The notes beneath the pieces were generated by a model that saw only the letters and a list, made by a program, of their open reading frames with translations, searched no databases and had not been told where the DNA came from. A DNA stretch of 64,000 bases from Betaproteobacteria bacterium RIFCSPLOWO2_02_FULL_63_19 (GTDB lineage: Bacteria > Pseudomonadota > Gammaproteobacteria > Burkholderiales > SG8-39), in NCBI GenBank assembly GCA_001770415.1, contig MEQX01000003.1, positions 8,442-72,441 of the forward strand. Reading direction: 5' to 3'. Position numbers and translations under genes: made by a program. Position 1 is the stretch's first letter, and each line of letters starts with the position of its first letter. Below are positions 30,863-44,213 of this stretch, piece after piece.

Positions 30863-31370
30863 GCATTGGACAGTCAATCGCGTCGGACCGGTCCAATTTA
30901 TTGATCCTCGACCGATCGCCGCTGCACGTGTCGATCGGGGAGTCGGATGACGGCGCGGCATGGTCGTGCAGCGGTCCGTCGTCTGTTCGGCTGCAACGGG
31001 TTCGATTTCCGCCATCGCGTCGAGCGCAACACGACATTTGGCAACGGCTCCGCCTCGGAACTACCGCGCCTTGGATTCACGCTGGAAGGCACTCCGCCCC
31101 AAGGTGTCCGAATGTCGGCCGATTTCTCGAGTCCCGGGGCTCGGCCGGGACTTAATCGCGTTTCTCGATGCTGCATAGGAAAAAAATGCGGCCGGAAAGC
31201 GAATGCATGCTGTTGAAAGTATTAATCAATATTTGGTCGGACCGCCGTGGTATGTACAAGAAAAATATACTTCGGGTGCGTCACGGTACCCCTGATTGGC
31301 GCCAGACGCGTCTCGGCTATTGGATCTAAGGCATTGACTCGATTGCCGCTTTTTCGCTGATTGCAGTCTG

Positions 31371-31386
31371 TGGCATGGAGGTTGCT
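31371..31386 (+). promoter_or_regulatory. sigma-54 (-24/-12) promoter
   Basis: TGGCATGGAGGTTGCT against the consensus TGGCACG-N4-TTGCW: GG and GC have exact spacing and there is one mismatch in the -24 hexamer. It lies 45 nt upstream of the ATG at 31431. An NtrC-type activator is encoded 9 kb downstream. Confidence 0.6.
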
Positions 31387-31430
31387 GTATTTGGGTCAAA
31401 CGGAAGCGCGAATGCATCGAAGGTGGTCAC

Positions 31431-31892
31431 ATGAGCGAAAAAGCCAAAGTTCTGATCGTCGATGACCAAGAGGTGGTTCGTTTGAGCTATCTCAGGTCGC
31501 TGGGCAGCGAACACTGTAGGGTGGACGTGGCGGCAAGTGGCGAGGAAGCGCTGCTGACGATGCAGCAACGCAAATTCGATCTGGTCCTCCTCGACCTGCG
31601 GATGCCTGGTATGGACGGTATGGACGTGCTTAGGACGATCAAGCAGACGTGGCCCGACACCGAAGTGGTCATGATTACCGGATACCCCACGGTCGAGACG
31701 GCGAAAGAGGCGGTTCGGTTGGGTGCACATGGCTACCTGGCCAAACCACTCGGTCCGGACGATATCGTCAATGCGGCAAACGACGCCGTCATCCAAAAGA
31801 AGTGGACGCTGCGCAAGGACTGCGGGAATGCAGGCCTGGGCACGGGTTTGCACACCGATGAGTGGAAGAAGACCGAGGGCGCTGCTTGCTGA
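31431..31892 (+). CDS. stand-alone response-regulator receiver (CheY-like) protein
   Basis: Contains VLIVDDQ, the phospho-acceptor context LVLLDLRMPGMDG, then VVMITGY and AKP. No output domain is present. Confidence 0.85.
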   Translation: MSEKAKVLIVDDQEVVRLSYLRSLGSEHCRVDVAASGEEALLTMQQRKFDLVLLDLRMPGMDGMDVLRTIKQTWPDTEVVMITGYPTVETAKEAVRLGAHGYLAKPLGPDDIVNAANDAVIQKKWTLRKDCGNAGLGTGLHTDEWKKTEGAAC

Positions 31893-32485
31893 TCGTGTGG
31901 GCTAGATTGCCGTGCGAAGACGCCAAGGCGACGCGTGAAGCGAGTCAGGAGTCATAAATTGTTCGCGGTCGATATTGACGGGATGATCGAAAAGAGCGAC
32001 TAGCGGGGCCCTTTGGCAGGGGTCAACGCTGCAATAACTGCCGAGGAGGGGGCAGGAAGCGCTGAGCAGGCTGGGCAGCGAAAACTACGAAGTGGTTTTC
32101 ACTGGAATAAGAATGCGAATGGATGGCATGAACGGGCTGCAAGTGCCCAGGCGCGTGAACGAGGACCAACCTTGGCTCGCGTGGGCCGTTGTCATCGGTC
32201 CGGCCACGTATGTGCATGGCCGCCGCAATCCGGCGGCAGGCGTTAGCGGATTCTTCTACAAAAAGCCTTGCGCGAGCTCGGTCAAATCCCATTCGGCAAA
32301 GCTCGACCTCCCGGAGCACGCGGCGACGTCGGAATTAAGGTTGTCGCCGCGCCGGAGACGCACGCATGCTGCTGCTTCGGGGGCAGCCGGCCAGATTTCC
32401 TCACGTGAAGTCGCCAATACGACCTCCTAATGACCCCTCTAAACAATAAAGCCGTTTCGAAGCCAAGCAATTTGCGGAGGCACAC

Positions 32486-33649
32486 ATGGTTCTGCTGATC
32501 GTAGTCGTCACGATTATCGTTTTCGTAATTGTCGACTTTTCGCTGCGCGTATATCTACAGAGGAGGCGGGAATTACAGCTCAGGAAAGAACGCGAGAAGG
32601 CTCTTGACATCGGACTGAAACTGGACTTTTCGGAGGAAGCAAAGACTCTCAAGCGAGTGGAGGTCAAGGATCCAAAGGCAAGAATCTTGGCCGTCGACGA
32701 CGAGCCGATAATCCTGGACAGCTTCAGGAAGATTCTCGTCGTCGCTGGCTATAGCATCGACACGGTGGAAAAAGGGAGCGAAGCACTGGGGCTAATTTTG
32801 AAAAATGACTACGACTTCGTTTTTACAGACCTGAAGATGCCGGAAATGGACGGCCTGGAGGTAACCAAGGCAGTCAAGCACCTGCGCCCCGATATAGACG
32901 TGATAGTCATCACCGGATACGCGTCCATCGAAACCGCCGTCGAGACGATGAAGTACGGGGCGATGGACTACGTACAGAAACCATTTACCGAGGACGAACT
33001 CATCGAGTTCTTCAACAAGTCGCTCATCCGGCGCAAGGACCGGATCGAACGTCAAATGAAGCCGACGGTCCGCTTGATCACCCCATCGGTGAAGGAGTCG
33101 GCGTCAATGCACGAGTTCAATGTGCCGGCAGGGATATTCGTCTCTCAGAATCATACCTGGGTCAATATAGAGATGAACGGTACCGCGCGTGTCGGAATAG
33201 ACGATTTCGTACGCAAGATCATCGGAACGATCGATCAGGTCGCGCTCCCGAAACTGAACAAGGAAATAGAAAAGGGCGATCCGCTTTTCTCCATCACAAA
33301 AGATTCTCGAACCATGGACATCGCCTCGCCGATAAGCGGAAAAATCAGTTTGGTAAACGCCGAGCATGTCGAGCATCCGGAATGGATCGGATCAAAGCCG
33401 TTCGAGCTCAGTTGGATGGTCTGTCTCGATCCGTCGAATCTCTCCGAGGAATTGCGTTCGCTGAAGATTGGCGCAGATTCAGTCAACTGGTACAGGAAGG
33501 AAATTGACAGGTACAGCGAAATTGCAACCGCAATCGAGGGAGAAGACGCCGGTACCGGCCGACCGGAGAAGGGAGGTGACAAGGGAGGGAAACCCAGGGC
33601 AGACGAGAAATTCATGGCCGAGTTCGCTAACGCATTTCTGCTGAAATAG
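32486..33649 (+). CDS. membrane-anchored receiver domain fused to a GcvH-like (glycine-cleavage H fold) domain
   Basis: An N-terminal TM helix (LLIVVVTIIVFVIVDF) is followed by a REC domain at about 32678-33030 (ILAVDDEP, FTDLKMPEMDG, VIVITGY, QKP). The region at about 33120-33440 aligns without gaps, by eye, to E. coli GcvH (H.W, GT..VGI, LP, GD, DI..P.SG.I..VN). Confidence 0.8.
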   Translation: MVLLIVVVTIIVFVIVDFSLRVYLQRRRELQLRKEREKALDIGLKLDFSEEAKTLKRVEVKDPKARILAVDDEPIILDSFRKILVVAGYSIDTVEKGSEALGLILKNDYDFVFTDLKMPEMDGLEVTKAVKHLRPDIDVIVITGYASIETAVETMKYGAMDYVQKPFTEDELIEFFNKSLIRRKDRIERQMKPTVRLITPSVKESASMHEFNVPAGIFVSQNHTWVNIEMNGTARVGIDDFVRKIIGTIDQVALPKLNKEIEKGDPLFSITKDSRTMDIASPISGKISLVNAEHVEHPEWIGSKPFELSWMVCLDPSNLSEELRSLKIGADSVNWYRKEIDRYSEIATAIEGEDAGTGRPEKGGDKGGKPRADEKFMAEFANAFLLK

Positions 33650-33701
33650 TCGACACGGTTCGGGAAGCTGTTTGTTCGTCGATTCTCCGAGAGAGGTAGC
33701 C

Positions 33702-34220
33702 ATGATCAAATATCTTTTCGCAACGGTATCGGCAGTAATGTTTGCTGCAGCCGGCCCGCCTGCAGGGGCAGCCCCTCCAAAGGCCGCGGCGCCCGAGACG
33801 GCGGCGTCCGGCGCTGCGTCTTTGAGCGTGGTGGCGCCGGAAATACCGTCGGAAATCATTATTCCGTCTTCGGTGGGCGCGATCAGGTTCCCGCACCAGA
33901 TGCACATAAAAGATCTTTCGGTCAAGTGCGTCGACTGCCACCATCAGATAAACGCCAGGCCATTGAGCACCCCGCATCCGGACTATTTCAGCTCGACCTG
34001 GATCAACTGCAGGACTTGCCACGAGCAATCGGAGAAGCTCTCGAAGAAGGCGTTCGTCTGCTCGGAGTGCCATACGGCCCGGCCGAAAAATATCGCGGAT
34101 GAAACACTCAGCGCAAAAGTGGTGGTTCACAAACAGTGCTGGAAGTGCCACGCGGTGGGCACCGGCAAGGAGGCAAGCAAAGCCTGTGAAAAGTGCCATT
34201 CGGGCAAGAAGCGCTTCTGA
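33702..34220 (+). CDS. periplasmic c3-type multihaem cytochrome (5 CXXCH motifs)
   Basis: It has a signal peptide and the c3-like opening FPHQMHIKDLSVKCVDCHH. The five motifs are CVDCH, CRTCH, CSECH, CWKCH and CEKCH. Confidence 0.85.
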   Translation: MIKYLFATVSAVMFAAAGPPAGAAPPKAAAPETAASGAASLSVVAPEIPSEIIIPSSVGAIRFPHQMHIKDLSVKCVDCHHQINARPLSTPHPDYFSSTWINCRTCHEQSEKLSKKAFVCSECHTARPKNIADETLSAKVVVHKQCWKCHAVGTGKEASKACEKCHSGKKRF

Positions 34221-34264
34221 TCAGGGCTGTTCGATTGATTTTCGGTCTCTGGTAAGGACAGATC

Positions 34265-35149
34265 ATGGATAGAAGACGGTTTTTCGCGACTGCCGGTACC
34301 GCCGCCGGGACGCTGCTGCACATGAAGAAGTCGGAGGCCGCGAACGCCAAGGAGGGCAAGGAGTTTGTCGGCGTGCTCGTCGATACGACAAGGTGCATTG
34401 GGTGCCGAGCCTGCGAAGTTGCCTGTTCGGTGGCATGGAACAATTTTGTTCCGGACGTAAAGAATGACAACGCGCTCGATCATCGCAGAGATACCAGCGA
34501 TAAGCAGTACACGGTCGTCAATCGTTTCAAGACCGAAAAGGGAGATGTATTCGTGAAGAGGCAGTGCATGCATTGCTGGCAGGCGGCTTGTGTCGCGATG
34601 TGCCTGGTGAATGCAATGTACAAGACCAAGGAGGGACCTGTTACCTGGAATGGAGAGAAATGCCTGGGGTGCAGATTTTGCATGGTGGCCTGTCCGTTTG
34701 ACATTCCAAAAGCTGAGTATCTTTCATGGAATCCAAGAATCATGAAGTGCCACATGTGCTATGAGAGACTGCAGGAGGGAAAGAAGCCCGCATGCGTGGA
34801 AGCGTGCCCGGCCGATGCGTTGATGTTCGGTCAAAAGCGAGAACTGATGGAAATCGCACGGCATCGCGTATACAGCCACCCAGACAAATATGTGCACCAG
34901 ATATACGGCGAGCAGGAAGCCGGTGGAACAGGTTGGCTCTACCTCTCCGCCGTTCCATTCGATCAGATAGGGTTCAGAACCGATCTTGGCACGACGCCTT
35001 ATCCAGAATACACGAAACAGTTTCTGGTTTCCGTGCCGCTCGTTCTATTCGGTGTTCCGGCACTGCTGCTAGGGCTGAGCGAGCTGTCGGATAGAAAGAA
35101 TGAAGTTCGCGAAAGCGAAGGATGGACAGAGACGGGGGCGGACGAATGA
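34265..35149 (+). CDS. Tat-exported 4x[4Fe-4S] ferredoxin-like subunit (HmcB/NrfC/DsrO/HybA family) with a C-terminal TM helix
   Basis: It has the twin-arginine signal MDRRRFFATAG. Four cluster motifs are present: CIGCRACEVAC, CMHCWQAACVAMC, CLGCRFCMVACP and CHMC-X11-CVEACP. A hydrophobic tail (FLVSVPLVLFGVPALLLGL) follows. Confidence 0.9.
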   Translation: MDRRRFFATAGTAAGTLLHMKKSEAANAKEGKEFVGVLVDTTRCIGCRACEVACSVAWNNFVPDVKNDNALDHRRDTSDKQYTVVNRFKTEKGDVFVKRQCMHCWQAACVAMCLVNAMYKTKEGPVTWNGEKCLGCRFCMVACPFDIPKAEYLSWNPRIMKCHMCYERLQEGKKPACVEACPADALMFGQKRELMEIARHRVYSHPDKYVHQIYGEQEAGGTGWLYLSAVPFDQIGFRTDLGTTPYPEYTKQFLVSVPLVLFGVPALLLGLSELSDRKNEVRESEGWTETGADE

Positions 35150-36345
35150 ACACCACCGCAATTGGCACAAGCGAATTCAACCGGGTCGCGAGTTTCATTT
35201 GGCAGGAATTGAAGCCGCGGGGCAAGTGGCTTACCCCGTTCAATGTCATCTCCATTCCGATCATATTGCTCGGCATTGGAATCCTGTATTTCCGTTTTGT
35301 ATACGGGATCGGATTCGTCACCAATCTCAACCAATACTACCCGTTGGGTATCTGGATCGGATTTGACGTGGTGACCGGAGTGGCTCTTGCCGGCGGGGCC
35401 TACGTCATCACCTTCGTCGTCTATGTGATGAGAATGGAAAAATATCATTCCATAGTCAGAGTGACGGTCTTGAACGGATTGTTAGCGTACATCTTCTATG
35501 CTGGGGCACTGACACTGGATCTGGGACGGCCCTGGCACATCGTCAATCCGATCATCGGGAATTCGTTCGGCTACAACTCAGTGCTGTTCCTCGTTTCGTG
35601 GCATTTTCTGCTCTATATGCTCACGATGGCGCTGGAGTTTTCGCCGGTCGTTGCGGAATGGGCCCAGCTTGAGAAAGCGCGGAAATTTCTTTCCGGCCTG
35701 ACGCTCGGTGCGGTGATATTCGGTATTACGCTTTCTATTCTGCATCAATCCGGTCTTGGCGCCCTGTTCCTGATGGCCAAGCCGAAGATCCATCCGCTTT
35801 GGTATTCGGAATTCATACCGGTCATGTTCGTCGTGTCAAGCATTTACGCGGGACTCTCGATGATCATATTCGAGGGAACGATCAGCCACAAAGTCTTTAG
35901 AGACCTGCTTGCTGGCCAAGATCATCATCGCTATGAGGAGATCATCCTTGGTCTGGGCAAAGGTGCGGCCATCACGATGTTCGTCTATTACTTCTTCCAG
36001 GCGCTGCTGTTCATACATGAAGAACGCTGGGAACTCATAACGGATGCTTGGGGTTACTGGTATCTCCTCGAGGTCATCGGTCTGGTGCTCATACCCTGTT
36101 TCATGTACGCGTACGCGGTGCGCAACAGGAACCTCGGAATACTCAAGGTGGCGGCCGTCCTGGCCCTGCTGGGCATAATCCTCAACAGGCTGAACGTGAC
36201 CGTCATCGCGTACCGCTGGTATGACGTGGACAAGTATTACCCGTCATGGCAGGAGATCGTCGTGACGCTCACGGTGGTCTTCACCGAGATATGGATCTTC
36301 CGCTGGATTGTTACCCGCATGCCGGTCTTCGGCAAGAGACGATAG
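35146..36345 (+). CDS. NrfD-family polytopic quinone-interacting membrane subunit (HmcC/DsrP-like)
   Basis: 399-aa protein with about 10 TM segments. Its start overlaps the FeS-protein stop (ATGA). The position after a Tat-FeS subunit is the canonical NrfCD-type arrangement. Confidence 0.85.
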   Translation: MNTTAIGTSEFNRVASFIWQELKPRGKWLTPFNVISIPIILLGIGILYFRFVYGIGFVTNLNQYYPLGIWIGFDVVTGVALAGGAYVITFVVYVMRMEKYHSIVRVTVLNGLLAYIFYAGALTLDLGRPWHIVNPIIGNSFGYNSVLFLVSWHFLLYMLTMALEFSPVVAEWAQLEKARKFLSGLTLGAVIFGITLSILHQSGLGALFLMAKPKIHPLWYSEFIPVMFVVSSIYAGLSMIIFEGTISHKVFRDLLAGQDHHRYEEIILGLGKGAAITMFVYYFFQALLFIHEERWELITDAWGYWYLLEVIGLVLIPCFMYAYAVRNRNLGILKVAAVLALLGIILNRLNVTVIAYRWYDVDKYYPSWQEIVVTLTVVFTEIWIFRWIVTRMPVFGKRR

Positions 36346-36354
36346 GAGCCGCGA

Positions 36355-36533
36355 TGGAGTACTACACGTATGTAAACATATTCGAGACCAAGGGCCTGGA
36401 ATACCTCCTGTTGATGTGCTTCTTCGCCCTGTTCATCTATCTGGTGAGATACCTGTCGGGCCCCGGAAAGAAGGATTCGGCTCCCCGTGACGGGAGCGCG
36501 GCGGGCGGCCGGATGAAAGGCGCCGGGCATTGA
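36355..36533 (+). CDS. small single-TM protein (59 aa), possible accessory subunit
   Basis: The ATG lies 9 nt after the nrfD-like stop and is preceded by AGGAG. One TM helix (LEYLLLMCFFALFIYLV) is present. The C-terminal tail lies in a GC-rich patch, so the 3' end is uncertain. Confidence 0.4.
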
Positions 36534-36660
36534 CCGTGCGAGCGGAAGCCAGCGATGAGCGGCGCACCGACGACGAGCGCCGGCGGCATGCGCCGATGAG
36601 GGGCATTGTCCGGGCGCCGTTGCGCGGTCGTCGTCCGGCTGGCGAGCGCGTCGAGCACCG

Positions 36661-38532
36661 ATGAAATTCGCCGGAACCAAGATCGGCCTGAAGCTGGTCC
36701 TTGCGGTCGGCGTCATCACGATCGTCATCATCGGCGCCTTTTCCTACCTGAGCATCAACGCGCAGAGCGATGCGCTGCTCTCGCAGGCCGGAATACACGC
36801 GAACAAGCTGAGCGAGGCGATAAAGAACAGCACGCACACGAGCATGCTCGAGAACAGGAAAGACGAGATTCACGCGATCATCAACACGGTCTCGCACGAA
36901 CCGAGCATTCTCGAGATACGGATATTCAACAAGGAAGGGGTCGTCACGTTCTCGTCGCGGGAGAATTCGACCGGCAAGATGGTCGACAAGCGCGCCGAGA
37001 GCTGCTACGCATGCCACACGGAGAACCAGCCATTGCGAAGGCTTTCGATCGACAAGAGAATGCGCATCTACAGGATCAGTTCGAATTCGCCGCGCATACT
37101 GGCCGTCATCAATCCCATCTACAACGAGCCCTCGTGCTACCAGGCGGCGTGCCATGCACACCGCCGGGACCAGACGGTGCTGGGCGTGCTGGACGTAAAG
37201 ATGGACCTAAAGGACGTCGATCGGCAGATCGAAGACAGCAAACTCAGGTTGATCATCTTTGCCGCCATTGCGACTCTTGCTTTAAGCCTATTCATTGCAT
37301 ATTTCGTGAGACGGTGGGTCGGAAAGCCCGTTAGCGAACTGGTAAAAGCGACCAACCAGGTAAGCCTGGGGAACTTGAATTACACGATAGAAGACCCAGG
37401 GAAGGACGAACTGGGAATCCTGGCCACGTCCTTCAACAAGATGACGAAGAGTCTTGCGGATGCCAAGCTGCAGCTCTTCCAGGCCGACAAGATGGCTTCG
37501 TTAGGGCGGCTTGCCGCCGGCGTAGCTCACGAAATAAATAACCCGCTTACGGGTGTATTGACCTACAGCAGTTTTCTGCTTAAGCGAGTCAAGGACAATC
37601 CAGAACTGCAGGAAAACCTTGAGGTAATAGTTCGAGAAACCATACGGAGCAGGGAGATCGTAAAGAGTCTGCTCGACTTCTCACGGCAATCGATTCCCAA
37701 AAAGCATAGTGCAGACATAAGCAAGATCATCAAGAGCGCAATCGAAGTGGTTTCCAATCAGCTCGTACTCAAGGAAATCCAGCTGGATGCGCAGCTGGAT
37801 GAGTCTTTGCCGGAAATCACGGTTGACGCAAACCAGATCCAGCAGGTGCTAATCAACCTGCTGGTCAACGCAGCGGACGCGATCGGAGAGGGCGGCGGTA
37901 AGATTTCCATCGTTCCATCTCTGATTTCTCTTCCGCCGCACGGTCTGGCGAGGATCAAAGCTGCCGTTTGCCCAAAGAGGCACGACCTGATGGATAACGA
38001 AGTTCGAAGTTACGGGCTGCCGACCGTGAGGCTGAAGGCCATTTCGAAGGGGACAGAGGGGATCATCAACCTGGATCCCATTTATGGAAAGAACCGGCAC
38101 CAGTACGGTTTGGAACTGGATCAAGGAGGGGACTTGCAGTTGTCCTGCCCCCAGTGCAATACGTCATTGATAGACGAATCCATACGGTGCCCGAAATGTC
38201 GTTCGACGGTATACAGTTTCGAAACGCCCCCGGACGGGGTGCTGGAAGGCTGTACGAACCCGGACTGCGGTTGGCAACGCTGGCAGGCAATGGATGATAC
38301 CGGCCAGAAAGATTACATCGAACTGAGGATCGCGGATACGGGTCAGGGGATCCCAAAGGAGGATCTATCCAGGATATTCGAACCGTTCTTCACCACGAAG
38401 GGGCAGTACGGGAATGGCCTGGGACTCGCGGTCATATGGGGAATAATCGACAACCATAACGGAACGATCAGCGTGGAAAGTGAACTCGGCAAGGGGACGG
38501 TGTTCGTCATTCATTTGCCGATGCAGAATTGA
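36661..38532 (+). CDS. sensor histidine kinase: periplasmic loop with haem-c motifs, HAMP, HisKA, and HATPase with a large Cys-rich insertion
   Basis: TM1 and TM2 flank a loop of about 170 aa carrying CYACH (37003-37017) and CYQAACH (37135-37155). It also has a HAMP domain, the H-box GVAHEINNPL, the N-box LLVNAADA, G1 DTGQGI and G2 GNGLGL. Confidence 0.9.
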   Translation: MKFAGTKIGLKLVLAVGVITIVIIGAFSYLSINAQSDALLSQAGIHANKLSEAIKNSTHTSMLENRKDEIHAIINTVSHEPSILEIRIFNKEGVVTFSSRENSTGKMVDKRAESCYACHTENQPLRRLSIDKRMRIYRISSNSPRILAVINPIYNEPSCYQAACHAHRRDQTVLGVLDVKMDLKDVDRQIEDSKLRLIIFAAIATLALSLFIAYFVRRWVGKPVSELVKATNQVSLGNLNYTIEDPGKDELGILATSFNKMTKSLADAKLQLFQADKMASLGRLAAGVAHEINNPLTGVLTYSSFLLKRVKDNPELQENLEVIVRETIRSREIVKSLLDFSRQSIPKKHSADISKIIKSAIEVVSNQLVLKEIQLDAQLDESLPEITVDANQIQQVLINLLVNAADAIGEGGGKISIVPSLISLPPHGLARIKAAVCPKRHDLMDNEVRSYGLPTVRLKAISKGTEGIINLDPIYGKNRHQYGLELDQGGDLQLSCPQCNTSLIDESIRCPKCRSTVYSFETPPDGVLEGCTNPDCGWQRWQAMDDTGQKDYIELRIADTGQGIPKEDLSRIFEPFFTTKGQYGNGLGLAVIWGIIDNHNGTISVESELGKGTVFVIHLPMQN

Positions 38533-38549
38533 TGCCCCGATGCTGGCGG

Positions 38550-38565
38550 GGGCACGAACTATGTG
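38550..38565 (+). promoter_or_regulatory. weak sigma-54-like promoter candidate upstream of the 9-haem cytochrome gene
   Basis: GGGCACGAACTATGTG has a good -24 element (GGCACG) at correct spacing. The -12 element is TGT instead of TGC. It lies 57 nt upstream of the ATG at 38622. Confidence 0.25.
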
Positions 38566-38621
38566 ACTGCCGGATAGCGCTCGCCGCAAAAGTTATCGTG
38601 ATGCAACGAAAGAGGAGTGAA

Positions 38622-39947
38622 ATGGGCATTGGCCGGAGCAGACTGGAGACAACGGGTACGGCGTTCCACACGGAGTTTGTTGTCGCTGTCGGGATTGCGG
38701 TGTTGGCGGCAGTGCTCACTGTTGCGAGCCCGCGCGCTGGCGCCGCCGAGGGCGCGCTTTCGCAACTGGATCAGCAATGTCTGGCCTGCCATTCCGCAGA
38801 GGGACTCGAGAAGAAGCTTGATAACGGAGAGAAGCTCTCGATGCACGTGGATGGGGCGGCATTTGAGAAATCTGTGCACAACAAGATTGGATGCCCGGTC
38901 TGCCATGCCAATACCTCGTTCGAGAATCATCCTCCGGTCAAGACGAAAATCAGCAGTGTCCGCGAGTATTCGCTTTCGCAGAACAAGGTTTGCGAATCGT
39001 GTCACGCACCAATACTCAAACTGTACGAAAGCAGCATTCATGCCGCGCTTCTGCGCTCGGGGAATGCGTACGCCCCCATATGCACGGACTGCCACAGTCC
39101 CCATGCGGTGATGGCGAAAGCCGCCTATGACAAAGCAAGCGGGACTCCCTGCAGCAAGTGTCACGATCCCATTTTCAAGGCGTACGCCAGCAGTGTGCAT
39201 GGTAACGCCGGCCTGGACTGCTCGAACTGCCACCGTGCTCATGAAGTTACTGCCGCGACCGCGGGAGACCAGTTGAAGGACGCCTGTCTGGCGTGTCACC
39301 AAGGCGCCTTGGACAGCCACAAGACTTGGTTGCCGAATGCCGGCCGGCATTTCGACGCAGTGTCTTGCCCGGCCTGTCATTCGCCTAAAGCCAAGCGCAG
39401 GGTTGACCTCAGGCTATATGACAATGCAGCGCAACAGCGCGTCGCGGAAAAGAAGGGTGTGCCACAGTTCGAAAGCCGCATTCGCCTGGTCGATTCCAAG
39501 GGTTCTGGTTTGGACGCGATGGCGCTGCACAGCCTGCTTACCGGGTTCAACCGTGACGGAACGGACAACAGGACAACGCTGCGGGGCCGACTGGAGGTCA
39601 GCGACGGTGTCGACGCGCATCGACTCGTGCGAAGCAAAGGGGCGATACAGGATTGCGCCAAGTGCCACCGGCAGGGGGCCGATCCGTTCCAGAGCGTCAC
39701 GGTATCCATTGTCGGTCCGGATGGCAGGCCGGTACGCTATGGCGCCAAGCCGGAGGTCCTGAATTCGATGATTTCGGTGGATTCGGTGGGCGGCTTCTAC
39801 GCAATCGGCGGAACGAGGATCAAGCTGCTCGACTGGCTCCTGGCTCTCGCGGTGCTAGGCGGCATAGGCGTGCCGCTCGGCCATCTGACCATAAACTGGC
39901 TTGTAAAGCGATACGCGAAAAGGATCGGCGGCAAGGAGGACTCCTAG
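38622..39947 (+). CDS. membrane-anchored nonahaem cytochrome c
   Basis: The ATG is preceded by AGAGGAG. It has a signal/anchor segment and nine CXXCH motifs (CLACH, CPVCH, CESCH, CTDCH, CSKCH, CSNCH, CLACH, CPACH, CAKCH). A C-terminal TM helix (LLDWLLALAVLGGIGVPLG) is present. Confidence 0.85.
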   Translation: MGIGRSRLETTGTAFHTEFVVAVGIAVLAAVLTVASPRAGAAEGALSQLDQQCLACHSAEGLEKKLDNGEKLSMHVDGAAFEKSVHNKIGCPVCHANTSFENHPPVKTKISSVREYSLSQNKVCESCHAPILKLYESSIHAALLRSGNAYAPICTDCHSPHAVMAKAAYDKASGTPCSKCHDPIFKAYASSVHGNAGLDCSNCHRAHEVTAATAGDQLKDACLACHQGALDSHKTWLPNAGRHFDAVSCPACHSPKAKRRVDLRLYDNAAQQRVAEKKGVPQFESRIRLVDSKGSGLDAMALHSLLTGFNRDGTDNRTTLRGRLEVSDGVDAHRLVRSKGAIQDCAKCHRQGADPFQSVTVSIVGPDGRPVRYGAKPEVLNSMISVDSVGGFYAIGGTRIKLLDWLLALAVLGGIGVPLGHLTINWLVKRYAKRIGGKEDS

Positions 39948-40027
39948 GACGATACGCGATGCGGGGTTGATCAGAGCCGTGCGTCGTCCCGTCAAAGCCG
40001 AGCTCCCATAGGTAGAAGGAATACGCG

Positions 40028-40666
40028 ATGCCAAGAATATATGTTCACCCGCTTCCCGTCAGAATCTGGCACTGGATCAACGCGCTCGGATTCGTGGCGA
40101 TGATCGTCACCGGATTCCAAATACGTTACATCGGATTAATCGATCTGATGTCATTCCGGACGGCGGTGGTCTTGCACGACTGGATCGGTTTCGTACTAAT
40201 CGGCAATTTCTTTATCTGGTTACTGTTCTATCTGTTCTCAGACAAGATCAAGGTGTATCACCCCGAATTGAGCCCGATGAAGCATTTTCGCCAGAGTTTC
40301 CGGCAGGCTCTGTATTACGGCTACGGCATCTTCAAAGGTGAACCCAATCCACACCACGTTAGCGTCTATCAAAAGTTCAATCCAATGCAAAGCATGAGTT
40401 ATCAGGTCATTATGCTGCTCCTGGTGCCACTGCAGTTCTGGACCGGAGTGCTGCTGTGGGACGTCAAGCGCTTTTCGGGAATGATCGATGCGCTCGGAGG
40501 TGTACGGGTGGTAGATACGGCACACGTGCTTATCTTTATCTTCTTTTCGGGATTTATCTTCATACACGTCTACCTGGCTACGCTGGGCCACACTCGCATG
40601 GCTCACATCAAGTCAATGTTCACCGGATATGAGGACATAGACGAAGAACACCCCGCTGGCCGTTGA
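40028..40666 (+). CDS. b-type cytochrome membrane subunit (Ni/Fe-hydrogenase-cytb / PhsC / FdnI-like family)
   Basis: 212-aa protein with 4 TM segments. The family-typical opening is VRIWHWINALGFVAMIVTGFQI, with conserved His residues in TM helices (HW, HD, HVLIF, HVYLA). Confidence 0.85.
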   Translation: MPRIYVHPLPVRIWHWINALGFVAMIVTGFQIRYIGLIDLMSFRTAVVLHDWIGFVLIGNFFIWLLFYLFSDKIKVYHPELSPMKHFRQSFRQALYYGYGIFKGEPNPHHVSVYQKFNPMQSMSYQVIMLLLVPLQFWTGVLLWDVKRFSGMIDALGGVRVVDTAHVLIFIFFSGFIFIHVYLATLGHTRMAHIKSMFTGYEDIDEEHPAGR

Positions 40667-40790
40667 TCGAGGCGCGCAGGGGCGCGAGCGCAGGCGCGGC
40701 GGCCGCCGGTTTCCGCAGGTCACCGCGGGCATCCCTGGTTCGATCCGAGGCGCAAGCCTTTCCCGCCGCACGTGTGCGCGCCGCTCCGCG

Positions 40791-42215
40791 TCAGGCGGGC
40801 CGAGACTCTCCGGCATTCTGTTCGGTATCCCGGACGCGGATGCCATACTTCTTCATGAGCGCCTGGAAGTTCGCGCGCTGCATGCCGGTCTCCTCGGCAC
40901 TTCGGGTCACGTTCCATGCGTTTCTCTTCAGGGCCTCGATCACGAAAAGGCGCTCGATGCCTTCAACCGATTTCTCCCGCGCGGTCTTCTTTATCTTCTT
41001 CAGTTCGTCACTGGTTCTGGGTACGTCCAGATCGGGTTGCACCACCAATTCGACGATGTTGACCAGGTGGGCCTGACGGACCATCCGGTCGCCGGCGAGG
41101 ATCACCGCACGGTGGATGGTGTTCTCCAGCTCGCGCACGTTCCCGGGCCAGCCGTAGTTCATCAGCACGCTCATTGCGCCTTCTGAGAATTCTTCCACTT
41201 TCTTTCCAAGTTCTTCGCTGAATACCCTTAGAAAGTGGAAGGCAAGGGCGGGAATGTCGTCTTTCCGTTCGCGCAGCGGCGGCACCGTAATGGGAAAAAT
41301 ATTAATGCGGTAATAGAGGTCCTCACGGAATGTTCCATCGGCTACCATCGCCTTGAGGTCCTTATTGGTGGCGGTGATGAGCCTGAAATTGGCGGCCTGC
41401 GTCCGCGTGTCGCCTACGGCCTTGAATTCGCGTTCCTGGATGACCCGCAGTAGCTTGGCCTGGGTCGAAAGGGTGATGTTGCCTATTTCGTCCAGGAACA
41501 GGGTCCCATTGTCCGCGAGTTCAAACAACCCGCGCTTGTTGGCCACTGCGCCGGTGAACGCGCCCTTGACGTGTCCGAACATCTCACTCTCCAGCAAGTT
41601 CTCGCTCAGCGAGTTGCAGTCAACCGCGACGAAGGGCTTGTCCTTTCTGAGACTGTTGTAGTGGATCGCACGCGCGATCAGTTCCTTTCCGGTTCCGCTA
41701 TCGCCGGCGAGCATGACCGTGCTGCTGGTCGGTGCGCACTTTGCGATCAGCCGGTATACGGTCTGCATCTGCGGGCTGGCCCCGATGATGTTCTCGAAGC
41801 GGTACTTCGAACTGACTTCACTCTTGAGGTTGGTGTTCTCCTGCAGCAGTTGACGCCTCTCTAATGCGCGCTTCACCACCAGTTTCAGTTCATCCGGGTC
41901 GAAGGGCTTGGGCAGGTAGTCGAAAGCGCCCAGCTTCATCGCGCGTACCGCCGTATCAATCTGCGATAGACCGGTGACCATTATTACGTCGATGTCCGGA
42001 TGTGCTTCCTTGACCCTGCGCAGGACTTCCAGCCCGTCGATTCCAGGCATCATGATGTCCAGGATCACGAGGTCGTAGGGGGTTTCATCGATCTCTTGGA
42101 TTGCCTGCAGTCCGTCCCGTACGGCTTCGACGGTGTAATCGCCGCTGCCGAGTATGCGCAGACAGCTTCTGATGATGATTTCTTCGTCGTCGACGACCAG
42201 TATTCTGGCGCTCAT
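40791..42215 (-). CDS. sigma-54-dependent response regulator (NtrC family: REC-AAA+-Fis HTH)
   Basis: REC domain (ILVVDDE, LVILDIMMPGIDG). AAA+ domain with Walker A GDSGTGKE, the GAFTGA loop and RVIQEREF. C-terminal HTH (WNVTRSAEETGMQRANFQALMKKYGI). Confidence 0.95.
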   Translation of the reverse strand: MSARILVVDDEEIIIRSCLRILGSGDYTVEAVRDGLQAIQEIDETPYDLVILDIMMPGIDGLEVLRRVKEAHPDIDVIMVTGLSQIDTAVRAMKLGAFDYLPKPFDPDELKLVVKRALERRQLLQENTNLKSEVSSKYRFENIIGASPQMQTVYRLIAKCAPTSSTVMLAGDSGTGKELIARAIHYNSLRKDKPFVAVDCNSLSENLLESEMFGHVKGAFTGAVANKRGLFELADNGTLFLDEIGNITLSTQAKLLRVIQEREFKAVGDTRTQAANFRLITATNKDLKAMVADGTFREDLYYRINIFPITVPPLRERKDDIPALAFHFLRVFSEELGKKVEEFSEGAMSVLMNYGWPGNVRELENTIHRAVILAGDRMVRQAHLVNIVELVVQPDLDVPRTSDELKKIKKTAREKSVEGIERLFVIEALKRNAWNVTRSAEETGMQRANFQALMKKYGIRVRDTEQNAGESRPA

Positions 42216-43852
42216 TGACTGCTCCCGCTGCTCTCCATCTTTTCCGGCGTCGGCTCGATCGGCAGAAACACGCGGAAGGTCGATCCCTCACCCTCGGTGC
42301 TCTCTACCTCAATCGCGCCGCCGTGTGCCTTCACGATGCCGTGGCTCACGGACAATCCAAGTCCCGTACCGCTTCCTACCTTCTTGGAAGTGAAGAACGG
42401 GTCGAAAACGCGATGAATAATATTTTCCGGGATGCCGCAACCGGTGTCGATGACCGATATCTCCACCATGGGGACAGGCGGCGCGCCCGGTTCGGGTGGC
42501 CTCGGGTCGGGACAGCGGCGGGTGCGCACGGTAATGCCGCCTTTTTCTTCGATTGCGTGCTGCGCGTTGACGAGCAAGTTCATGATTACCTGCTTGAACA
42601 GGTCCTCATCGACCCACACCAACGGTAAGTCAGTGTCGAGTTCGAGGGTGATCTCGATATTGCGTAGGTGTGCGGGTCGCTCGATGATCCGAGTGGTGTC
42701 TTCGATGATCGGATTGAGGTCGGCAAATTTCTTTTCCGGCGGCCTTTCGCGTGCAAAATCCAGCAGCCTGCGGATGATCGCCGCGCAGCGCTTGGTTTCC
42801 CGGATGATCAGGTCCAGGTCCTCCGCGTCCGGGCTATCGTCCGGCAGCTTCTGGCGCAGCAGGTGGGCGAAGGTGAGAATACCGGTCAATGGATTGTTGA
42901 GTTCGTGGGCGATTCCCGCTGCCAGCAGACCTACGGACGCCAGTTTCTCCCCGCGAACAGCTTCGGCCTGCGCAGCGCGCAGTTCGCGGGTCCGTTTTTC
43001 CACTTTCTCTTCCAGTGTGTGAGCCCATTCGTGCAACTCCAGCCTGGATTGCCTGAGCGCTCTGGTCATGGCGTTGAACGATCCGGACAACTGTCCGAAT
43101 TCGTCGTCGCTGCGCACGGGTATTGTCTGTTCGAGGTCTCCGGAGGCAAGCCGTCTGGCACCTTCTTCCAAGTCGTTCAGGGGAACCTGAATCAGGCGAT
43201 GCACGAAGAAGGCGACCATGACAGAGGCCACAACGATGAAGCACAGCGAAAACAGGGCGATGGTCAGCGCATTGGCGCGCAATCCACGGTCGATGTCCTC
43301 CAGCGAATAGACGATATCCAGTACGCCAAGCACGGACGTGGTCTTTGCATGCTGGTGGCAGGCCGCTGTGTAGCACGAGGGCTCGTTGCGTATTACCTCC
43401 ATGCTGCCGAGCATGCGCCTGCCTTCGGGCGTAGTAAATGTCCAAGTTCGTTCATGTCTGGGCACCTGCTCCAGTGGCTGTTTGCTCTGGTGACAGTGGG
43501 AGCAGGCTTCGGCTTTGCGATCCAGCGTCTGCCCGATTTCCGATGCGTCGGTGGAATGCGTGATCTTGCCCTCTTTACTCAGGATTCGGACCTTGTCGAT
43601 GGTGCCCTTGTTGCTGACGTCGCGAATAATCCTGTCGACGTAATCGGGTTGATTCTGAAGCATCGCGTAGCGCGTGCTCTTGGTGATGACCTCGGACAAC
43701 TGGGTGACGCGGTCGGAAACGTTCGCCAGGAGTTCTTGGCGCTGATGCCAGATGACCAGTGCAACGAAGGCCGACATGACCGTCGTTAGCGCAAGTGTCA
43801 AGTACAGGGCGACCTTGAACTTGAGAGTTTCCGGACGCATGCGTGCCTTCAC
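42212..43852 (-). CDS. sensor histidine kinase, paralogue of 36661-38532, with haem-c motifs in the periplasmic loop
   Basis: It has the same architecture. CSHCH (43490-43504) and CYTAACH (43355-43375) lie at equivalent positions. HAMP, H-box GIAHELNNPL, N-box LLVNAQHA, G1 DTGCGI and G2 GTGLGL are present. Its stop overlaps the activator start (ATGA). Confidence 0.9.
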   Translation of the reverse strand: MKARMRPETLKFKVALYLTLALTTVMSAFVALVIWHQRQELLANVSDRVTQLSEVITKSTRYAMLQNQPDYVDRIIRDVSNKGTIDKVRILSKEGKITHSTDASEIGQTLDRKAEACSHCHQSKQPLEQVPRHERTWTFTTPEGRRMLGSMEVIRNEPSCYTAACHQHAKTTSVLGVLDIVYSLEDIDRGLRANALTIALFSLCFIVVASVMVAFFVHRLIQVPLNDLEEGARRLASGDLEQTIPVRSDDEFGQLSGSFNAMTRALRQSRLELHEWAHTLEEKVEKRTRELRAAQAEAVRGEKLASVGLLAAGIAHELNNPLTGILTFAHLLRQKLPDDSPDAEDLDLIIRETKRCAAIIRRLLDFARERPPEKKFADLNPIIEDTTRIIERPAHLRNIEITLELDTDLPLVWVDEDLFKQVIMNLLVNAQHAIEEKGGITVRTRRCPDPRPPEPGAPPVPMVEISVIDTGCGIPENIIHRVFDPFFTSKKVGSGTGLGLSVSHGIVKAHGGAIEVESTEGEGSTFRVFLPIEPTPEKMESSGSSQ

Positions 43853-44213
43853 CTCGCGTGATGTATCGGAGGCGATGGAAGGCTGTCGTCGCGTCTGGGA
43901 AATTCTGGGAACACCGGCTCCACGCAGTTTCGTTTCTCGATCCTCTTGTCCGACGGGTCGGATGGATGATTAGGCTAGCATTGTGACGAGAGCGGCAATT
44001 GACCCGCATCAAACCGGAAGGCGCAGCATTGCGGCCGGTGTCATGCGTGGCGTGCCCGGGCCGGCGGCATCCAACGGGGTGCATCGTCGGCACATCCGGT
44101 ATCCCGAAACCGCATCAACCGGTGACCGGTATGCCGTGTCGCTGCGGAATCCTCGGCGTATGATTCGCGAAAGACTGAATCCGGGAAAACGCAAATCTGT
44201 CGAGGTGAACGAG

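Follow-up and report, generated by a model that had tools for sequence, protein, structure and literature searches.

The 64,000-nucleotide (nt) stretch of Betaproteobacteria bacterium RIFCSPLOWO2_02_FULL_63_19 analysed here, hereafter the window, carries on its forward strand (positions 32486-33649) the gene of RG1, a protein of 387 amino acids (aa) predicted to be a membrane-tethered response regulator whose output domain resembles GcvH, the H-protein of the glycine cleavage system. Gene calls on independent contigs from ENA, JGI and Logan yield an identical protein. Pfam recognizes in it a receiver domain (REC; Response_reg, PF00072) at residues 67-174, with 105 bits for a cut-off of 30.2 and profile positions 1-108 of 111 covered, and a GcvH-like domain (GCV_H, PF01597) at residues 220-326, with 70.4 bits for a cut-off of 22.2. 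Downstream of RG1 on the same strand, and spaced by -4 to 127 nt, follow genes encoding a cytochrome c, an iron-sulfur (FeS) protein, an NrfD-family subunit, a small peptide and a histidine kinase. Gene calls together with Pfam and NCBIfam matches bear out that RG1 heads a cytochrome/FeS/NrfD operon, as advanced in an original prediction made from a reading of the sequence.

The N terminus of RG1 is a hydrophobic run predicted to form a transmembrane (TM) helix (residues 1-24, positions 32486-32557) and modelled as a helix with a predicted local distance difference test score (pLDDT) of ~85. Because the Arg/Lys-rich segment RRRELQLRKEREK comes right after these residues, the positive-inside rule points to an N-out/C-in orientation. 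The juxtamembrane segment that follows (residues 25-64, 32558-32677, reading ...ALDIGLKLD..EAKTLKRVEV..PKA) is conserved, and orthologs from other phyla (L062, P0068 and P0039) as well as the alignment consensus are near-identical to it. The receiver (32678-33055) has its full signature, namely an acidic pocket (D71/D72), the phospho-acceptor D115 in FTDLKMPEMDG and the switch residues T143 and K165, all of them invariant or nearly so in the family alignment A4, and the TM helix and complete receiver that had been claimed for this protein are thus both present. Then come the GcvH-fold domain devoid of a lipoyl-lysine (residues 210-328, 33113-33469) and a conserved C-terminal extension of ~60 residues (329-387, 33470-33646). 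The latter consists of a long helix (329-356) with the conserved W335-Y336-x-x-E339, a low-complexity spacer and an amphipathic helix (369-387) with the conserved F380/F384, AlphaFold2 placing the two helices at 330-356 and 369-385; it also occurs in relatives of RG1 that have no receiver. The Pfam and NCBIfam scans return REC and GCV_H only, with no DNA-binding or sigma-54-activating output domain. By every sequence criterion, RG1 is a response regulator.

The assignment of the C-terminal domain to the GcvH fold holds for both sequence and model. When HMMER aligns residues 211-325 with E. coli GcvH (3a8i/3a7a), the first 103 columns are ungapped, in agreement with the ungapped alignment of the original prediction. 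In two AlphaFold2 runs, based on alignments of 50 and 61 sequences, the TM helix, the GcvH-like part (pLDDT ~90) and the helical tail are modelled confidently, and Foldseek superposes the GcvH-like model on the solved H-proteins 3a8k, 3ab9 and 1onl with a TM-score of ~0.9 and a root-mean-square deviation of 1.6-1.8 Å over ~127 residues. The receiver reaches a pLDDT of 45-64 in both runs, the linkers are of low confidence and the predicted TM-score is ~0.5, so that an interface between the receiver and the GcvH-like domain cannot be claimed; the low-confidence linkers are compatible with a tethered, mobile output. RG1 and GcvH share, along with the fold, the motifs H-x-W, VGI(T/D)D, LP, SP(V/I)SG and GW, but RG1 differs by the missing lipoyl-lysine, the membrane tether, the fused receiver and the conserved helical extension.

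The missing lysine is a property of the whole family. In the hairpin SITKDSRTMDI (33290-33322), the E. coli residues ESVKA pair with TKDSR of RG1, which places Ser274 in the column of the lipoyl-lysine and a lysine, K272, two positions before it, exactly as stated in the original prediction. A census was made of 133 GcvH-like open reading frames (ORFs) taken from 90 related loci, 90 of these ORFs being of the RG1 type or of the RG3 type; RG3 (~387 aa, with TM helix and tail) and RG2 (~262 aa, soluble and tail-less) are additional REC-GcvH-like paralogs found in relatives, both likewise without the lysine. The lipoyl column is occupied by Asp (42), Ser (34), Gly (21), Asn (9) and others, and by Lys only once among the 133, in a REC-less paralog, and in none of the 90 RG1/RG3-type proteins. 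RG1 also stays below both NCBIfam cut-offs for GcvH (TIGR00527, 65.3 versus 115.85; NF002270, 69.3 versus 117), and neither gcvT nor gcvP is found within ~10 kb of RG1 or among the scanned ORFs of the window, the neighbours being redox and signalling genes. The absence of the lysine, the missed equivalog cut-offs and the lack of association with gcv genes together mean that RG1 should not be filed as GcvH; the first two also support the original prediction that the domain is probably not a lipoyl carrier.

A carrier function might still be imagined if a lipoyl, octanoyl, biotinyl or other group were borne by a shifted residue such as K272 and shuttled reducing equivalents or acyl groups. Apart from the lysine that RG1 has two positions before the canonical site, this idea can draw on the GcvH-like lipoate-binding proteins that serve Hdr-like redox complexes in sulfur oxidisers (a topic mentioned in PMC10332631). 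However, the K272 column holds a lysine in 7% of the 90 RG1/RG3-type proteins, and the best hairpin column, at position -3, in 47%, with a Thr in RG1 itself; the hairpin is, furthermore, the most variable region of the domain across the family. In lipoyl domains, modification requires the exact position of the lysine in the turn. On the conservation of the hairpin columns, the shifted lysine is rejected as an alternative modification site, and a cryptic carrier of any kind appears highly improbable. The swinging-arm-like output that had been suggested for this domain has lost its basis as well, because no conserved hairpin residue could bear a prosthetic group.

While the lysine is lost, the scaffold is kept, with little or no variation in the motifs VPAG, HTW, GIDDF and SPISG, the WY..E helix and the terminal W/F..F...F helix, which argues that the GcvH-like domain is under selection for another role. 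A degenerate remnant or pseudogene was considered and ruled out by the intact ORF, the identical independent contigs and the conservation of scaffold residues across phyla. From its sequence, the C-terminal domain of RG1 is best described as a conserved pseudo-H-protein, neither a carrier nor a decaying remnant.

The partners of this pseudo-H-protein are encoded immediately downstream, all on the forward strand. Based on Pfam matches, motif counts and gene calls, the first gene (33702-34220) encodes a small periplasmic c7/c3-like cytochrome c with five CxxCH motifs. It is followed by an HmcB/HybA-like 4Fe-4S protein (34265-35149; Fer4_11 and NCBIfam matches) with a twin-arginine translocation (Tat) signal, MDRRRFF, at one terminus and a tail anchor at the other, by an integral membrane subunit of the NrfD family, HmcC/HybB-like according to Pfam and NCBIfam (35146-36345), by a called gene for a 59-aa single-TM peptide starting with MEYYTYVNIFETKGLEYLLL (36354-36533), and by HK1, a HAMP histidine kinase (36661-38532; Pfam and motif check) with the periplasmic motifs CYACH and CYQAACH.

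To evaluate how far this arrangement is conserved, genomes were scanned at one genome per species with a profile built from a 10-sequence alignment, a 16-sequence alignment (A1) being too divergent for this purpose. Ninety relatives were found and 80 kept; synteny was scored by tblastn and hidden Markov model matches on raw contigs, and detection of the short peptide is imperfect. A receiver is fused ahead of the GcvH-like domain in 73 of 73 genome loci. The c7-like cytochrome directly follows RG1 in 71/76, the FeS protein comes next in 67/70, NrfD after it in 63/66, the small peptide in 55/63 and the HAMP kinase in 50/59; where both flanks are available, a kinase is present somewhere in the locus in 43 of 45 cases. 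One or two extra REC-GcvH-like paralogs (RG2, RG3) follow the kinase in 28/51 loci, and a pair of CbcA/CbcB-like cytochrome genes in 16/51, those of the betaproteobacterial lineage, as in the window. The architecture and its neighbourhood, whose distribution the original prediction had left to a search, therefore recur in a conserved gene order across 80 genomes, one per species, that span at least 10 phyla.

The redox genes have known relatives. By NCBIfam, the FeS protein is nearest to HmcB/HybA and the NrfD protein to HmcC/HybB, although both fall short of the Hmc cut-offs (HmcB, 333 bits versus 420; HmcC, 381 versus 550). Hmc also includes a small hydrophobic subunit, HmcD. The window differs from Hmc by having a cytochrome with five motifs instead of the 16-haem HmcA and by the absence of HmcE- or HmcF-like genes. 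A published survey of modules made of a cytochrome c, a tail-anchored FeS protein and a HybB-like protein reports no conserved flanking genes in its examples, whereas the clade of the window has a fixed set of them: one or more GcvH-like proteins, the invariant peptide and a dihaem kinase. The three-protein module is of a known kind, and the GcvH-like accessory family is new.

The peptide provides an independent handle on this association. It is 41-59 aa long and has no NCBIfam family match. Its N-terminal motif (M-E-x-Y-x-Y-V-N-I-F-E-T-K-G-L-E-Y-L-L-L) is predicted to lie on the periplasmic side and hardly varies between Betaproteobacteria, Planctomycetia and Ignavibacteria. As the 80 genome loci had been picked through the GcvH-like domain, a reverse search was carried out in metagenome contigs with the DNA motif of the peptide alone; it gave at least 120 matching stretches, and the 80 loci listed were analysed. 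Among these listed loci, NrfD lies immediately upstream of the peptide in 45/48, 14 of the 16 with at least 4.3 kb of upstream sequence have a GcvH-like gene, and in 34/66 the peptide is itself the N terminus of a protein made of a GcvH-like domain and tail. Two loci of this set, L127 and L130, have no GcvH-like gene. L127 (metagenome contig Ga0316576_10002740) encodes the cytochrome c, FeS protein, NrfD and peptide and, although over 4 kb of sequence flanks them at either end, neither a GcvH-like protein nor a haem kinase; in this one case, the regulatory pair of GcvH-like protein and kinase was lost or gained together.

Two types of cluster can be distinguished. Type A is that of the window; type B is without the cytochrome c gene and has the order X-TM-GcvH-like, FeS protein, NrfD, peptide::GcvH-like fusion, kinase and sigma-54 regulator. 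GcvH-like genes devoid of a receiver also adjoin FeS/NrfD pairs, as illustrated by P0199, which is an RG1 with its receiver precisely excised, next to FeS and NrfD genes. In the type-B locus L091 (4171-5874, protein P0224), a signal peptide and a PBP_like_2 domain precede the TM helix, GcvH-like domain and tail, directly upstream of an FeS/NrfD pair lacking a cytochrome c gene; this ~560-aa PBP_like_2-GcvH-like class, with ~90 similar representatives and an LQDGG motif, is among the two commonest in a profile search described below. Both REC and GcvH-like domains are predicted to be cytoplasmic in every variant. It is thus the GcvH-like domain with its tail that appears to be the constant module, the inputs varying between a receiver, a periplasmic binding domain and an anchor alone.

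In both the REC-less and the PBP-fused clusters, the GcvH-like gene directly precedes the Tat-signal FeS gene, a position that could also be that of an assembly or export chaperone. In this scenario, the GcvH-like module and tail would bind the Tat signal peptide, the unfolded FeS protein, or NrfD and the peptide during cofactor loading and membrane insertion, in the manner of the dedicated maturation proteins of redox enzymes, and the receiver of RG1 would make this step signal-dependent. A cytoplasmic module located at the membrane would suit such a task, and the L127 complex devoid of a GcvH-like protein is what one expects of an accessory factor. Nevertheless, there are two or three paralogs per cluster, one of them soluble, a lasting fusion to a subunit-like peptide is unusual for a transient chaperone, the Pfam and NCBIfam scans reveal no similarity to known maturation-protein families, and a Tat chaperone under the control of a receiver is, to our knowledge, without precedent. 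We regard this possibility as improbable.

As to signal input, CxxCH and Cx4CH are the two motif types of c3-type cytochromes, and the periplasmic domain of the type-A kinases contains exactly one of each in 60 of 60 orthologs; in type B, both motifs are found at the same spacing in the 11 of 11 kinases sampled. Because of this strict conservation in the 60 orthologs, HK1 is very likely a c-haem redox sensor, as judged from its motifs. A second HAMP kinase, HK2 (42212-43852, reverse strand), recognized as a paralog by sequence comparison with HK1, has the same pair type (CSHCH and CYTAACH) in its periplasmic domain. It adjoins the gene, also on the reverse strand (40791-42215), of a sigma-54-dependent response regulator with the Pfam architecture REC-AAA+-HTH_8, BccR-like by analogy. 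The locus therefore has, at 40791-43852, a separate and dedicated transcriptional branch consisting of HK2 and the divergent sigma-54 activator. Between the N-box and the G1-box of its ATPase domain, HK1 further contains an insertion of 154 aa with 7 Cys (CPKRH..., CPQC...CPKC..., CTNPDC) and a weak match to the Pfam DZR zinc ribbon; the insertion is present in 41/49 HK1 orthologs and absent from HK2, and a zinc-ribbon-like module within the catalytic domain of a kinase is unusual.

The close tie between kinase and GcvH-like protein raises the alternative that the GcvH-like module and its tail talk to the haem kinases and not to the redox complex. The tethered proteins would then shape the output from kinase to sigma-54 regulator as accessory sensors, phosphate sinks or feedback elements, and the FeS protein, NrfD and peptide may be a quinone-pool 'antenna' giving electrons to the periplasmic haems of the kinase. 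Such a relay would account for the near-constant co-occurrence of the kinase (43/45) and for L127, the one clear locus without a GcvH-like gene, in which the kinase is missing too. It is also favoured by type B, in which the kinase retains its haem motifs without a cytochrome c and could be the periplasmic electron partner of the FeS protein, by the PBP_like_2-TM-GcvH-like proteins, which resemble a transmembrane sensor with a cytoplasmic transmitter, by the many receivers in each locus, and by the conserved Cys-rich insertion of HK1, which could serve as a docking site. On the other hand, the fusion partner of the GcvH-like domain is the peptide encoded after NrfD and not the kinase, REC-less GcvH-like genes adjoin FeS/NrfD on contigs with no visible kinase (L007-L010), and a receiver fused upstream makes the GcvH-like domain a recipient, not a source, of the kinase signal. 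On balance, we find a relay or co-sensor role unlikely, if less so than the chaperone.

We favour instead an accessory role at the redox complex. The conserved synteny, the fusions to the peptide, the REC-less and PBP-containing versions, the cytoplasmic topology, the lack of a DNA-binding domain and the separate transcriptional branch all point to a GcvH-like module which, with its tail, probably docks on the FeS/NrfD complex at its cytoplasmic face. The redox partners would be the Tat-exported FeS protein, the quinone-interacting NrfD subunit and the near-invariant peptide of ~45 aa, joined in this lineage by the pentahaem cytochrome c. In RG1, a receiver is inserted between the anchor and the GcvH-like module, by which a haem-sensing kinase could switch the engagement, and phosphotransfer from HK1 to RG1 seems fairly likely. 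That RG1 is, as a whole, a phosphorylation-controlled, membrane-tethered pseudo-H-protein docking on this module is a reading to which we give about an even chance; that it regulates the activity of the complex is conceivable and falls somewhat short of that.

The mechanism could be as follows. With its two periplasmic c-type haem motifs, HK1 would read the periplasmic redox poise and phosphorylate D115 of RG1; the phosphorylated receiver would alter the grip of the tethered GcvH-like domain and tail on the cytoplasmic face of NrfD and the peptide; and the altered engagement would tune the activity or the assembly of the quinone:cytochrome module after translation, HK2 and the sigma-54 regulator setting transcription in parallel. 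Taken in full, a dihaem kinase that phosphorylates a tethered pseudo-H-protein and so gates, post-translationally, the electron or proton flow through the NrfD quinone module, or its assembly, is put forward tentatively and is rather doubtful. That kinase signalling is coupled to the respiratory module and not to transcription, as envisaged in the original prediction, gains comparative support from the synteny in 80 genomes, the fusions, the REC-less and PBP-fused versions beside FeS/NrfD, the absence of a DNA-binding domain and the separate sigma-54 branch, and the docking and phosphotransfer at its core stay at the conditional level given above.

Several observations weigh against the role proposed for RG1. 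All family members come from metagenome-assembled genomes (MAGs) or metagenomes, and docking, phosphotransfer and the effect on activity are deduced by comparison. The L127 complex exists without the GcvH-like gene and the kinase, so the GcvH-like domain is not an obligatory structural subunit. Each locus has further receivers, namely the standalone REC protein described below and, in relatives, a REC-multi-TM protein and the RG2/RG3 paralogs, which leaves the wiring of the phosphorelay ambiguous, including which kinase pairs with RG1. Since RG2 is soluble and tail-less, tethering is not universal, and the RG1 receiver was modelled twice at low confidence. Finally, adjacency and fusion indicate a functional linkage and cannot tell whether the protein regulates the complex, matures together with it or sends signals from it.

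The tuning of bacterial respiratory chains is ascribed mainly to transcription. Control by a phosphorelay directly on a quinone-interacting complex, if true, would be fast and would act at a different regulatory level. The GcvH-like module with its tail would likewise represent an unrecognised and widespread family of accessory subunits of NrfD complexes with interchangeable inputs, and would add a new output class to the repertoire of response regulators. The carriers live in sediments, groundwater and wetlands, where they drive iron, sulfur and carbon cycling.

CheY, RssB and CpdR are response regulators whose outputs bind proteins instead of DNA, and EIIA-Glc, a member of the same barrel-sandwich hybrid-motif superfamily as the GcvH fold, controls membrane transporters depending on whether it is phosphorylated. 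EIIA-Glc and PII/GlnK with AmtB resemble the mechanism proposed for RG1 by analogy only, in that the covalent state of a small cytoplasmic domain decides on the engagement of a membrane target; the relation of EIIA-Glc, PII/GlnK and the CheY-type regulators to RG1 goes no further than the receiver or a distant hybrid-motif fold. LbpA of the sHdr system and GcvH-L of Staphylococcus and Streptococcus, whose structure 5a35 is among the Foldseek matches to the GcvH-like model of RG1, also put an H-protein fold to use outside glycine cleavage, in redox and stress pathways. The lipoyl-lysine is retained in these two proteins, which are soluble carriers of lipoate, whereas the RG1 family is membrane-tethered and has no modifiable hairpin residue. 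We know of no described response regulator with a GcvH fold as its output, nor of a two-component system that acts directly on an NrfD-type complex, and no description of the REC-GcvH-like architecture was found in the searchable literature, in line with its having been presented as undescribed. The Desulfovibrio protein Rrf1 (DVU_0530, hmc operon) was considered as a founding REC-GcvH protein and dropped on the basis of the one paper found, a 2026 preprint in which it is taken to match the structure of CstR, a CheY-like receiver with a single domain.

A second parallel concerns the genes after HK1, which accompany the cluster in the betaproteobacterial lineage. On the forward strand, these encode a cytochrome c with nine CxxCH motifs and a C-terminal TM anchor, CbcA-like (38622-39947; Pfam, NCBIfam and motif count), and a CbcB-like b-type cytochrome of the PhsC/cytochrome b561 family (40028-40666; Ni_hydr_CYTB, 93 bits; NCBIfam thiosulfate reductase cytochrome b, 120 bits). 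Geobacter sulfurreducens has in Cbc5 (cbcEDCBA) and its sigma-54 regulator BccR a low-potential CbcBA/BccR system. Compared by description, both systems comprise an anchored multihaem cytochrome c, a dihaem b-type PhsC-like cytochrome, an NrfD/FeS/cytochrome trio and a divergent sigma-54 regulator, to which the window adds a sigma-54-like promoter candidate. The gene order of Cbc5 is different, however, and the paper describing it reports no REC-GcvH-like protein.

Upstream of RG1, a standalone single-domain receiver of 153 aa (31431-31892, forward strand; Pfam REC, 111 bits) is conserved in betaproteobacterial loci. Forty-five nt upstream of its gene lies a candidate sigma-54 -24/-12 element, TGGCATGGAGGTTGCT (TGGCAT-N5-TTGCT; 31371-31386, forward strand), which matches 9 of 11 consensus positions and is proposed from this consensus match only; it would fit with control by the divergent sigma-54 activator (40791-42215). 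A conserved promoter of this type just ahead of RG1 was also sought and discarded, the best scores in 48 loci barely exceeding those of shuffled sequence, and only the site before the standalone receiver gene is a good match. The gap of 590 bp between the standalone receiver and RG1 (31893-32485) has no convincing gene, the 100-105-aa ORF called there being without a Pfam match. At this position, a close relative (L014, 5937-6674) encodes a 245-aa protein with a receiver and a C-terminal multi-TM part, and since close relatives carry this gene, the source genome appears to have lost it. No structured RNA with an Rfam match at E <= 0.1 occurs in the gap or across 30.7-44.5 kb, and no tRNA gene in the whole window.

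The GcvH-like family is large. A word-indexed search with full RG1 brought up over 120 distinct orthologs of full length with identities of at least 77%, and a profile search of 1.84 billion representatives gave at least 500 clusters (50% identity) at E <= 1e-30; thousands of metagenomic proteins belong to the family. The 80 genomes kept in the one-genome-per-species scan are all MAGs, with no cultured organism among the relatives, and their taxonomic labels are possibly affected by binning errors. RG1-type carriers closest to the source are Burkholderiales and other Betaproteobacteria; further carriers belong to several orders of Gammaproteobacteria, Ignavibacteria, Bacteroidota, Acidobacteriota, Gemmatimonadota, KSB1, Zhuqueibacterota, Planctomycetia and Desulfobacterota. 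In the window, the G+C content drops from ~0.63 to 0.52-0.59 throughout the locus (~31000-44000), and orthologous loci with ~80% protein identity occur in MAGs that carry the labels Geobacteraceae, Sulfotelmatobacter, Brocadiaceae, Enterobacteriaceae and Burkholderiales. The two observations suggest that the cluster moved horizontally, or else that binning errors occurred.

Members of the family routinely go by 'glycine cleavage system H protein' or 'lipoate-binding protein' in public JGI and NCBI MAG records, and those fused to a receiver are annotated as 'CheY-like', 'response regulator', 'histidine kinase' or 'sigma-54 dependent DNA-binding response regulator'. For lysine-less, membrane-tethered proteins, such names are wrong or unsupported, and the mislabelled members can inflate glycine-cleavage calls in metabolic reconstructions from MAGs. 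Lysine-less H-protein folds are also found in another redox context: in L092 (3234-7409), the 1391-aa protein P0201 combines three lysine-less GCV_H repeats with FAD_binding_4 and FAD-oxidase_C domains, a 4Fe-4S dicluster and two CCG domains (HdrD-like), and its sequence points to a second, independent recruitment of such folds to a redox enzyme.

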